Of a stretch of DNA of 14,733 nt, positions 10,833 to 14,563 are shown piece after piece. The stretch is from NCBI GenBank assembly GCA_039591655.1, contig JBDHDE010000060.1:1-14733 (forward strand). Direction: 5' to 3'. Within the stretch, counting starts at the first letter, position 1, and each line of letters opens with the position of its first letter. Source of the DNA: Gemmatimonadota bacterium. GTDB lineage: Bacteria; Gemmatimonadota; Gemmatimonadetes; Gemmatimonadales; GWC2-71-9. The notes beneath the pieces are model-generated. The model searched no databases. It worked only from the letters and a program-made list of their open reading frames with translations, and was not told the origin of the DNA. The position numbers and the translations under genes were made by a program.

Positions 10833-11228
10833 ATGAAGAAGTCCGACGCGGAGTGGAAGGCCCAGTTGACGCCGGAGCAGTACCGGGTGACGCGGGAGAA
10901 GGGGACCGAGCGGGCTTTCACAGGCGAGTACTGTGACTGTAAGACCCCGGGCGTCTATCGTTGCATCTGCTGCGGGAGCCCCCTGTTCAGCTCCAACACC
11001 AAGTTCGACTCCGGGACCGGTTGGCCGAGCTTCTGGGGCCCGGTCGTGGCGGAAGCCGTCCGGAACGAGCCCGACGACAGCCTGTCCATGCATCGGACCG
11101 AGGTGCTATGCAGGTTCTGCGATGCGCACCTGGGGCACGTGTTCGATGACGGGCCGGAGCCCACCGGCCTGCGCTACTGCGTCAACTCCGCGGCCCTGCG
11201 CCTGGAGCCGCGGGAGGGCGAGCCCTAG
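10833..11228 (+). CDS. msrB: Peptide-methionine (R)-S-oxide reductase MsrB (131 aa)
   Basis: Motifs [20 protein letters not shown], the Zn motifs CICC and [25 protein letters not shown] and catalytic RYCVNS. Confidence 0.96.
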
Positions 11229-11379
11229 GAGAGTTTTCTTGCAGGGAGGCATTAAGGCCACTTTAAGCGGTTCTTTGTGCAATCCTAAGACTGTGCTCGA
11301 TAGGCTGTTGTGCTGGCGTCGTTGGGGGAGAGTAGCCCGGCGGATGCCTCACGGAAGCAGTGGTGGCGGCGGTCGCAAA

Positions 11380-11398
11380 GACGAGTGATCCACTCGTC
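11380..11398 (+). promoter_or_regulatory. Perfect 8-bp inverted repeat upstream of malic enzyme SD
   Basis: GACGAGTG-ATC-CACTCGTC, followed by CAACCAAGAGGGGTGATTCC-GTG. Confidence 0.45.
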
Positions 11399-11418
11399 CA
11401 ACCAAGAGGGGTGATTCC

Positions 11419-13362
11419 GTGGCACGCAAGAGGGCCAAGCGGTCCAAGAAGAAGGCCACCGGGCGGGTGAAGAGGGCGGCAACGTCGGTGAAGAAGGCCG
11501 TTCGCCGCGGGGCGAAGACCGCACAGAAGATGCAGAAGACGACCGGCCGCAAGGTGAAGCGGGCGGCCCAGAAGGCGAAGAAGACCGCCCGACGCCGTGT
11601 GCAGAAGGCGGCCAAGGCGGCCAAGAAGACGGCACGCCGCGGCGCCACGCAGGCGGCCAAGGCCACGACACGGGCGGCGCGGGACTTGAAGAAGGCGGTC
11701 GAGGCCCGCAAGCGGGCGGCCGAGGGCCGCGCCAGGAGCGCGTTCCCCACCGGGATCGAGTTGCTGCACGACTCGCGCCTCAACAAGGGCACCGCCTTTG
11801 CAGAGGCGGAGCGCGACGCCCTGAGGCTGCGTGGCCTGCTGCCGCCGGTCGTGAACAGCATCGAAGTGCAGCAACACCGCGTGCTCGAGAACTACAACCA
11901 CAAGCCCACGCCCCTCGAGAAGTACATCTTCATGATCGCCTTGCAGGATCGCAACGAGACGCTGTTCTACCGCACGGTGATCGACAACATCTACGAGATG
12001 ATGCCCATCATCTACACGCCGACCGTGGGTGAGGCGTGCGCCAAGTTCGGGCACATCTTCCGCCAGCCGCGCGGCCTCTACGTCTCGGCCAAGCACAAGG
12101 GACAGATCGCCAAGGTGCTGCGCAACTGGCCGGAGAAGGACGTGGGCGTCATCGTGGTGACCGACGGCGAGCGCATCCTCGGGCTGGGCGATCTGGGCGC
12201 CGACGGGATGGGCATTCCCATCGGGAAGCTCTCGCTGTACACGGCGTGTGCCGGGGTGCACCCGAGACTCACGCTACCCGTCACGCTGGACGTGGGCACC
12301 GACAACGACGAGCTGCGGGAGGACCCGCTCTACATCGGCATCCGGCAGAAGCGGCTCCGCGGCAAGGAATACGACGACTTCGTCGAGGAGTTCATCACCG
12401 CGGTGCGGCGTAGCTTCCCGGAGGCGCTCGTGCAGTTCGAGGACTTCGCCACGCTCAACGCCTTCCGGTTGCTCAGGAAGTACCACGACCGCATTTGCAC
12501 GTTCAACGACGACATCCAGGGCACCGCGGCCGTGACGCTCGCCGGCCTGTTGGGTGCCGGGCGCATCACCGGCCAGGACATCACGAAGCAGACGGTGCTC
12601 TTCCTCGGCGCCGGCGAGGCGGGCATCGGCATCGCCGATCTCTGCGTCTCGGCCATGGTCCGGGAAGGCATGGACCGCGATGAGGCCATGCGCCGTGTGT
12701 GGCACGTGGACTCGAAGGGGTTGGTGGTGAAGTCACGCACCGACCTGGCGGAGCACAAGCTCCCCTACGCCCGGGACCACGAGTTCGTGCCCGACCTGGC
12801 GGCGGCCATCGAGGCGGCGAAGCCCACGGCAATCATCGGGGTCTCGGGCAAGCCGCAGTCCTTTACGGAGCCGATGGTGCGACGGATGGCGGAGATCAAC
12901 CAGCGTCCGATCGTGTTCGCACTCTCGAACCCGACCTCCAAGGCAGAGTGCACGGCCGAGCAGTGTTACCAGTGGACGGACGGCCGCGCGATCTTCGCCA
13001 GCGGCAGCCCGTTCGACCCGGTCACCTACCAGGGCAAGCGGCACGTCCCGACGCAGGGGAACAATGCCTACATCTTCCCGGGGCTCGGGCTGGGCGCCGT
13101 CGTGTCGCGGGCCAGGCATGTGACCGACGACATGTTCTACGTCGCCACCCGGGCCGTGGCGAACATGACGACCGAGGAGGAGCTGGCGCAGGGTGCCATC
13201 CTGCCGCCGCTCACCGCGATCCGCGAGGTCTCGGCGACGATCGCCGCAGCGGTGGCGGAATACGCGTGGGACGAAGGCCTCGCCACACGCAGGCGGCCTC
13301 GGGACATCATGGCATTGGTGCGGTCCCAGATGTACGACCCACGCTACGAGAGCTACGTGTAG
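11419..13362 (+). CDS. maeA: Malic enzyme (large-subunit MaeA/SfcA/eukaryote-like class) with N-terminal histone-H1-like basic extension (647 aa)
   Basis: Motifs LNKGTAF, LQDRNETLFY, PIIYTPTVG, VVTDGERILGLGDLG, QFEDF, FNDDIQGTA, GAGEAGIG, FALSNPTSKAEC and QGNNAYIFPG. GTG start with a GAGGGGTGA SD. Residues 1-110 are K/R/A-rich. Confidence 0.93.
   Translation: MARKRAKRSKKKATGRVKRAATSVKKAVRRGAKTAQKMQKTTGRKVKRAAQKAKKTARRRVQKAAKAAKKTARRGATQAAKATTRAARDLKKAVEARKRAAEGRARSAFPTGIELLHDSRLNKGTAFAEAERDALRLRGLLPPVVNSIEVQQHRVLENYNHKPTPLEKYIFMIALQDRNETLFYRTVIDNIYEMMPIIYTPTVGEACAKFGHIFRQPRGLYVSAKHKGQIAKVLRNWPEKDVGVIVVTDGERILGLGDLGADGMGIPIGKLSLYTACAGVHPRLTLPVTLDVGTDNDELREDPLYIGIRQKRLRGKEYDDFVEEFITAVRRSFPEALVQFEDFATLNAFRLLRKYHDRICTFNDDIQGTAAVTLAGLLGAGRITGQDITKQTVLFLGAGEAGIGIADLCVSAMVREGMDRDEAMRRVWHVDSKGLVVKSRTDLAEHKLPYARDHEFVPDLAAAIEAAKPTAIIGVSGKPQSFTEPMVRRMAEINQRPIVFALSNPTSKAECTAEQCYQWTDGRAIFASGSPFDPVTYQGKRHVPTQGNNAYIFPGLGLGAVVSRARHVTDDMFYVATRAVANMTTEEELAQGAILPPLTAIREVSATIAAAVAEYAWDEGLATRRRPRDIMALVRSQMYDPRYESYV
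11467..11643 (+). repeat. Degenerate ~45-bp (15-aa) tandem repeats in the basic extension
   Basis: VKRAATSVKKAVRRG (aa17-31), AKTAQKMQKTTGRK (32-45), VKRAAQKAKKTARRR (46-60) and VQKAAKAAKKTARRG (61-75). Confidence 0.75.
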
Positions 13363-14275: not shown

Positions 14276-14484
14276 TAGTCTTCCAGGGTGAAGCTGATCT
14301 TGAGGATGGCCTGCCACTGACTGACCTTGCTGCCCTCGATGTGCCCCCGGATCTCCGTTACCTCGACCCAGCGCATGTTGCGCACGGTCTTCGCGGCCCG
14401 GCCCACCGCCTTCTGTACCGCGTCCTCGATGCCCTTATCCGAGGTGCCGACGAGCTCGGTGGTCTTGTAGACGTGGTCCTGCAT
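14275..14484 (-). CDS. Dodecin (flavin-binding protein), 69 aa
   Basis: HVYKTTELVGTS...IEDAVQKAV.RA.KTVRNMRWVEVTEIRGHI...WQAILKISFTLE, with an AAGGAG SD. Confidence 0.95.
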   Translation of the reverse strand: MQDHVYKTTELVGTSDKGIEDAVQKAVGRAAKTVRNMRWVEVTEIRGHIEGSKVSQWQAILKISFTLED

Positions 14485-14563
14485 GGGCGGACTCCTTCGT
14501 TTGAGTGTTCCCAGACGCCACGGTCAGGCCCGCGCCGGTGAATGCGCCGACCACCGCGCTGGA

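Follow-up and report, generated by a model that had tools for sequence, protein, structure and literature searches.

A conserved, proline-free basic arm with a two-faced helical pattern on a Gemmatimonadota malic enzyme, and its possible role in polyanion binding

The window analysed here is a 14,733-nucleotide stretch of a Gemmatimonadota genome, and at positions 11419-13362 of its forward strand it holds an open reading frame of 647 codons, with a GTG start and an intact frame. The product falls into three parts: a basic arm (residues 1-104; 11419-11730, +), delimited by composition, periodicity, register, dN/dS and low-confidence predicted helices; a short linker (residues 105-110; 11731-11748, +), recognised by the conservation of its terminal Pro110; and a core (residues 111-647 and stop codon; 11749-13362, +), which matches PRK13529 and both PF00390 and PF03949 and is a large-subunit, eukaryote-like malic enzyme with a putative NADP+-type signature. 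An extended Shine-Dalgarno (SD) sequence precedes the GTG (11404-11415, +), and no match to a sigma-70-type promoter was found in 11150-11500. An msrB gene and a MOSC gene lie upstream of the malic enzyme gene and an M55 peptidase gene downstream, the latter being common to many long- and short-tailed loci. In many relatives (L005, L006, L009, L031 and L032) a PF03977 gene precedes the malic enzyme gene; in the source genome it is msrB that does so. Beside the M55 D-aminopeptidase gene lies a dodecin gene (14330-14530, -), identified by similarity; the dodecin of a related locus (L002:151-498) was confirmed by Pfam. The window also encodes an EgtD-type histidine methyltransferase (PF10017; 4898-6085, -), and no other ergothioneine gene was recognised in it.

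The whole protein scores 771 bits against PRK13529 (curated cut-off, 326), over residues 103-646. The entire catalytic region aligns with large-subunit NADP-malic enzymes of known structure (PDB 6c7n, 7x11 and 1gq2; E about 1e-188 to 1e-192), and the nearest solved structures are those of plant and animal NADP-malic enzymes. In none of the 21-24 listed homologues of known structure does the alignment reach further upstream than query residue 82, and most begin at 104-117; the enzyme part thus begins at about residue 103-114 (from 103 with PRK13529, from 104-114 in the PDB alignments). Tyr199, Lys270, Glu341/Asp342 and Asp364/Asp365, which we take to be the catalytic and metal-binding residues, are invariant in all 16 orthologues and identical in the aligned PDB chains, and Ser432, Lys433 and Lys447 align with identical residues of 7x11. 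The NADP+ malic-enzyme signature is given as Ser/Lys/Lys at positions 346/347/362 (PMC3183043) and, if our mapping onto that numbering is right, the core carries it. Homologous malic enzymes are tetramers (PMC3183043), and by analogy this one is likely to be tetrameric too. It gave the one tblastn match in the source genome (95% complete) and is the sole malic enzyme found there; its closest relatives are proteins of Gemmatimonadota (Gemmatimonadales).

The first 110 residues include 24 Lys and 20 Arg (44 basic residues), only three acidic residues (Asp89, Glu95 and Glu102, leaving residues 1-88 without any) and a sole proline, at position 110, a recount that agrees exactly with the earlier note on this DNA. 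The repeats of about 15 residues described in that note are present, though degenerate: the self-match of the arm peaks at lags of 14, 15 and 29 (0.34, 0.34 and 0.36), stands lower at lag 11 (0.24), and TRF detects only weak arrays in the arm DNA (scores 32-57). GC3 is 0.93 in arm and core alike, and Lys is encoded by AAG throughout both. The net charge is +41 for the arm (0.38 per residue) and -5 for the core, so that the arm raises the total to +36; across tails it ranges from +32 to +50, with almost no acidic residues, the cores being at -3 to -5. The pooled composition of 16 tails is 27% K, 24% A, 17% R, 9% T, 5% V and 0.3% P. None of the 16 has an internal proline, and Pro110 is invariant in the nine genome-derived tails and nearly so among the 16. 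Aromatic residues are lacking, L/I/V/M make up just 7-11%, and the mean hydrophobicity is -0.15 to -0.25.

The basic residues of these tails are regularly spaced: their periodicity peaks between 97 and 100 degrees in every one of the 16, with a power that none of 500 shuffles of each attained. The pitch is about 98 degrees per residue, that is, about 3.67 residues per turn (range 3.6-3.7), and when the tails are drawn on an 11/3 wheel, K/R account for 82% of the basic pole and A, V, T and G for 54%, 21%, 12% and 8% of the pole facing it. At 98.2 degrees per residue, moreover, the two ends of the arm keep their register over lengths of 35-84 residues: 19 of 20 fall within 63 degrees (mean resultant 0.83) and the single outlier lies at 112 degrees, the sequences being related and hence not independent. 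As a control, 12 other basic tails from the source genome and its relatives do not have the pattern (8-496 of 500 shuffles reach their values). Among 43 basic segments of the source genome, the malic-enzyme arm alone was matched by none of 200 shuffles; the next best segment was matched by three.

The earlier note had considered that translation might start internally, for example at a TTG at codon 90, or that a sequencing error had removed the stop codon of a separate basic gene. Several database gene calls do begin within the tail (P0005-P0007, P0013 and P0025), and among contigs from four of the 20 listed sequencing runs, compared over 11200-12200, none bridges the arm-core junction, one near-identical contig covering 11527-11724. 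The SD of the GTG, however, has a duplex energy of -12.4 kcal/mol with a short anti-SD motif, as against -5.8 for TTG90 and -7.3 or weaker for the seven internal start codons; in 10 of 10 tailed loci the SD is conserved (duplex of -8.1 to -12.5 kcal/mol), the internal ones are weaker, and the first GTG is the strongest in-frame start. No start codon is conserved near the core, and three of nine long-tailed loci (L002, L003 and L005) are free of ATG, GTG and TTG over both the final 48 codons of the tail and the initial 10 of the core. Among the best 120 homologues, seven are the same protein or near copies of it and 23 more carry an in-frame basic arm; these 23 represent about 18 distinct, independent sequences, 71-91% identical, in which the frame is continuous. 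A search for a free-standing tail homologue of similar length (577 candidates) gave one match, a fragment of the same enzyme. In a survey of the genus, the enzyme was found in nine of ten other genomes, G001 (84% complete) giving no match, and all ten enzyme-bearing genomes, the source included, encode an arm of 65-121 residues, so that relatives do keep it. The tailed genes of two of them, G005 and G006, are broken or masked farther downstream; in the G006 orthologue (L198, on C47; P0122) the core is short of about 30 residues at its beginning and a frameshift follows later, owing either to assembly error or to decay.

The tail is also under selection. In the nine pairs whose tails are at least 68% identical, its dN/dS is 0.10-0.30 (core, 0.05-0.14). 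Of 45 pairs, 40 could be computed, and every one of these stays below 1, values of up to 0.76 being reached where the tails align badly; tail and core have similar dS. These values, together with the orthologues, exclude on sequence grounds a lost stop and make an internal start unlikely. We infer that translation starts at the GTG, and it is highly improbable that the arm lies outside the working enzyme, be it through an internal start, a lost stop or a separate small basic gene. The view of the arm as an add-on ahead of the malic-enzyme fold, real and selected, is borne out.

A profile built from nine tails, when run against longer proteins (7,981 candidates scored), matched malic enzymes in 29 of 29 cases. 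With a tail-plus-core profile, the long arm was seen in two of the best 150 cluster representatives; at least six of the 62 parsed loci among 80 GTDB loci listed have it, all in Gemmatimonadota or a subgroup of that phylum, and none of 29 loci sampled in the family's other genera does, one of these having 42 basic residues. Sister genera carry basic N-termini of 9-42 residues at the same locus, and these short-tailed orthologues share neighbour genes and a similar ribosome-binding site with the long-tailed ones. In a quick tree of 53 cores, the 16 long-tailed rows form one clade (SH-aLRT 99), nested in a larger clade (100) with the orthologues that have 9-42-residue basic N-termini; the larger clade also holds P0030, with a 107-residue arm (hhalign probability 92%, on low-complexity sequence), which has no firm placement. 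Since no free-standing or otherwise fused homologue was found, and since short basic N-termini occupy the same locus in sister genera, the arm most likely grew in place from such an N-terminus and did not arise by fusion of a histone-like gene. Malic enzymes with shorter basic N-termini of 29-58 residues were also seen (P0067, P0124 and P0187); P0067 falls outside the tailed clade, which suggests that such extensions began repeatedly and independently.

The earlier note had described the protein as a malic enzyme fused to a histone-H1-like domain. No Pfam match to the H1 winged-helix globular domain was found in the protein or its tail, and the domain was absent from the five tail families listed at E<=10. 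Canonical H1 tails consist mainly of Lys, Ala and Pro (PMC11331069), whereas the malic-enzyme tails, almost devoid of proline, resemble only the proline-free exceptions, sea-urchin sperm H1 and the engineered CH1PA, which are likewise of about 100 residues, Lys/Ala-rich and Arg-containing (PMC11331069), and with which the arm would share the expectation of folding only on neutralisation (PMC11331069). Even so, the likeness is compositional only, no homology having been found, and the arm differs in being N-terminal on a bacterial metabolic enzyme and in its strictly two-faced pattern, which includes a Val/Thr stripe. The add-on, and selection on it, stand, but the label of a fusion to an H1-like domain is not supported by the profile searches, the orthologues and the lack of proline.

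Other basic proteins offer partial parallels. The AlgP/PhaF regions are polycationic repeats borne on another domain and proposed as tethers to DNA or polyphosphate granules, but they are C-terminal, built of proline-rich KPAA tetrapeptides and predicted to be disordered (PMC9239181), whereas the arm has no proline and a helical repeat of about 15 residues; being proline-free and two-faced, it therefore differs from these as it does from canonical H1 tails. Chlamydial Hc2 also has lysine-rich repeats, the length of which changes by duplication and deletion, but it is free-standing and made of pentamers in 36-residue elements (PMC2848022), whereas the arm extends an enzyme and has 7/11/15-type spacing, its repeat lag being 14-15 and not the 5 of Hc2; Pfam gave no Hc1/Hc2 match at E<=0.05, nor among the best 25 of 41 families at E<=10 (nine tails). 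By these features the arm belongs with none of H1, Hc1/Hc2 or AlgP/PhaF, yet by analogy it may act similarly. Lineage-specific basic add-ons to catalytic or regulatory domains are known in another GC-rich bacterium, Streptomyces, on TopA, HupS, Ku and HrdB (PMC5714199), and in DdbA, an H1-like plus DksA protein that condenses DNA through its basic part, this part is likewise N-terminal (PMC3643593); those carriers already act on DNA or RNA polymerase, whereas the arm described here sits on an enzyme of central carbon metabolism. The 3-11 helices of perilipin-4 and alpha-synuclein (PMC8064757) resemble the arm in having about 3.67 residues per turn, an Ala/Val/Thr/Gly face, no aromatics and a repeat-built sequence, but the arm is far more positive, almost acid-free and without a clear 11- or 33-mer repeat, its self-match at lag 11 lying below those at lags 14-15 and 29; no homology to them was found, the best related Pfam matches (E 0.13-0.19) being far under the cut-off.

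AlphaFold, run on a 16-row alignment (mean pLDDT 57.7), placed helices at residues 2-71 and 77-104 with pLDDT of about 40-55; structure predictions are reported to overstate helix in Lys/Ala chains (PMC11331069). A complex prediction with two copies of the arm gave no usable answer (score 0.00). The ESM Atlas gave no usable match to residues 1-110, and a PDB search with the tail profile returned weak helical-bundle matches only (best E, 0.031). An NCBIfam match to Ceg14 (E 0.078; 11 bits against a cut-off of 950) was set aside as compositional noise, and a microcompartment cargo peptide was rejected, no BMC shell gene being found in the source genome. Organellar presequences are enriched in Leu, Ser and Phe; the arm is not, and this together with the bacterial context led us to reject a presequence.

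We give a probability of about 0.5 to the reading in which the arm turns helical on meeting a polyanion and holds the predicted tetramer on nucleic acid (DNA or RNA) or polyphosphate. Binding of polyanions is plausible for a polycation carried by an enzyme that is likely to be tetrameric, and the wholly basic face opposite the apolar stripe points to a polyanion as the ligand. The arm would be mostly unfolded until it met a phosphate polymer, which would neutralise its charge and let it fold into a long helix, as in proline-free H1 tails; such Lys/Ala tails are largely unstructured in isolation, may become more helical when DNA is present and are the more potent DNA condensers (PMC11331069). 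The basic face would contact the phosphates, and the small apolar stripe would pack against a partner arm or into a DNA groove. Four arms per tetramer, with about +160 charges, would provide avidity, duplications preserving the helical register would have lengthened the arm, and the enzyme would deliver NADPH at the anchoring site. This reading is consistent with an arm that is kept across the genus, selected, in frame and proline-free, with its Lys and Arg on one half of the wheel. Lysine repeats are over-represented among DNA-binding proteins (PMC5714199), and nucleic acid is favoured over polyphosphate, by abundance and precedent only; genes for both PPK1 and PPK2 are present in the source genome. 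Against a tether, the 12 other basic tails, several of them on nucleic-acid-binding proteins, do without an apolar stripe; a strict stripe is not required for simple electrostatic DNA binding, and the make-up of the stripe matches that of lipid-surface helices (PMC8064757). Within the genus the arms differ in length by a factor of two, and 9-42 residues suffice in sister genera, which raises the possibility that the function is modulatory, and no chromatin-linked neighbour gene was found at the malic-enzyme locus.

It is this stripe that is well explained if the arm is instead an anchor to anionic membranes, an 11/3 amphipathic helix of small residues that would lie on the inner membrane in the manner of alpha-synuclein or perilipin-4 and bring the enzyme close to membrane energetics. 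The pitch of 3.6-3.7 and the Ala/Val/Thr/Gly face match those of small-hydrophobic 3-11 helices (PMC8064757), and the upstream neighbour in five of five loci tested, long- and short-tailed, is the beta subunit of a Na+-pumping decarboxylase (PF03977). However, short-tailed orthologues adjoin that same gene, and the long-armed source genome (95% complete) has no PF03977 gene that we could find; the negative hydrophobicity, the lack of aromatics and the scarcity of L/I/V/M also fit a membrane helix poorly, and an almost acid-free polar face, wholly basic on its outside, is left unexplained. We regard a membrane anchor as the main rival to the polyanion tether, though clearly less probable. A PHA-granule surface is unlikely, since no PhaC was found in the source genome. 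A search for WS/DGAT, on the lipid-droplet route, gave no match anywhere, controls included, and so is uninformative.

The conserved register and the stripe would suit a helix-helix contact, in which the arm would bind either an acidic protein or the surface of the enzyme itself and so tune assembly or activity, possibly under the control of lysine acetylation or threonine phosphorylation, with Lys and Thr as frequent as they are in the arm. We consider such a regulatory or protein-binding role unlikely: with so high a net charge and so few acids, arms bundled only with one another would repel, the acidity of the core is weak, and the arm accommodates indels of as many as about 40 residues, unlike what is expected of a specific interface. 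Less probable still is a tolerated low-complexity outgrowth, constrained only for solubility and non-toxicity in a lineage prone to basic tails. Lysine-rich add-ons are indeed common in the lineage (L4, aconitase, TopA, L30 and a SWIB protein) and the length of the arm is variable, but the low dN/dS, a periodicity that is unique among the 43 basic segments, a register that survives indels and retention in every enzyme-bearing genome of the genus all speak against it. The polyanion tether could also be extended: the arms might pair through their Ala/Val stripes into rods of about 15 nm, so that the tetramer condenses the chromosome or scaffolds polyphosphate, and the aconitase tail might join in, gathering central-carbon enzymes on one polyanion; this extension is rather doubtful.

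The earlier note knew of no described case. A malic enzyme with such an arm was not found in searches of the open-access literature, and the main text of a survey of prokaryotic low-complexity regions does not mention malic enzyme, though its supplements may bear on the matter (PMC6821194). Lysine-rich tails on enzymes are nonetheless already known (PMC5714199; PMC3643593), lysine-repeat proteins numbering 554 in 22 Streptomyces proteomes, with 175 annotated as DNA-binding (PMC5714199); what sets this one apart is the malic enzyme as carrier and the proline-free, two-faced design. Basic low-complexity tails of bacterial enzymes are usually written off as disordered and seldom tested. Here, one locus in uncultured Gemmatimonadota, in which a single genus carries the arm, offers a natural length series (9, 12, 35-42 and 65-121 residues), a measurable design rule, in that a charge-free stripe is held in register despite indels, and an enzyme that is easy to assay. 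It is thus a direct test case of whether bacteria place metabolic enzymes on DNA, RNA, polyphosphate or membranes by means of grown arms; if the nucleoid reading is true, NADPH production would be located on the chromosome.

Other basic tails were seen in the lineage; the contig coordinates given for them are those of the source genome. A C-terminal basic extension of L4 is spread through the order (19 of 23 genomes), and TopA and L30 have N-terminal lysine-rich or basic segments (TopA, L4 and L30 at C11:38243-40699, C26:816-1868 and C26:8632-9018, +). Aconitase A (C12:21023-24316, -) ends in a Lys/Arg-rich, acid-free tail, 30-58 residues long across its carriers, that contains proline and has no helical pattern. 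Among 27 parsed of 30 aconitase loci, five have a long tail (four in genus g1 and one in sister genus g13) and one, in g1, a short one, the remaining 21, one of them masked, having none; the tail thus tracks the clade in which the malic enzyme has its arm, where aconitase is a second central-carbon enzyme with a basic extension. Two small open reading frames (C3:69656-70150, -, and C9:60009-60227, -), with no Pfam match, are mostly Lys/Ala/Pro-rich and H1-tail-like. In a SWIB/MDM2 protein (C50:15884-16474, -) the domain is preceded by about 104 residues, 70% Lys/Arg, with protamine-like repeats, which makes this protein a candidate for a true nucleoid protein.
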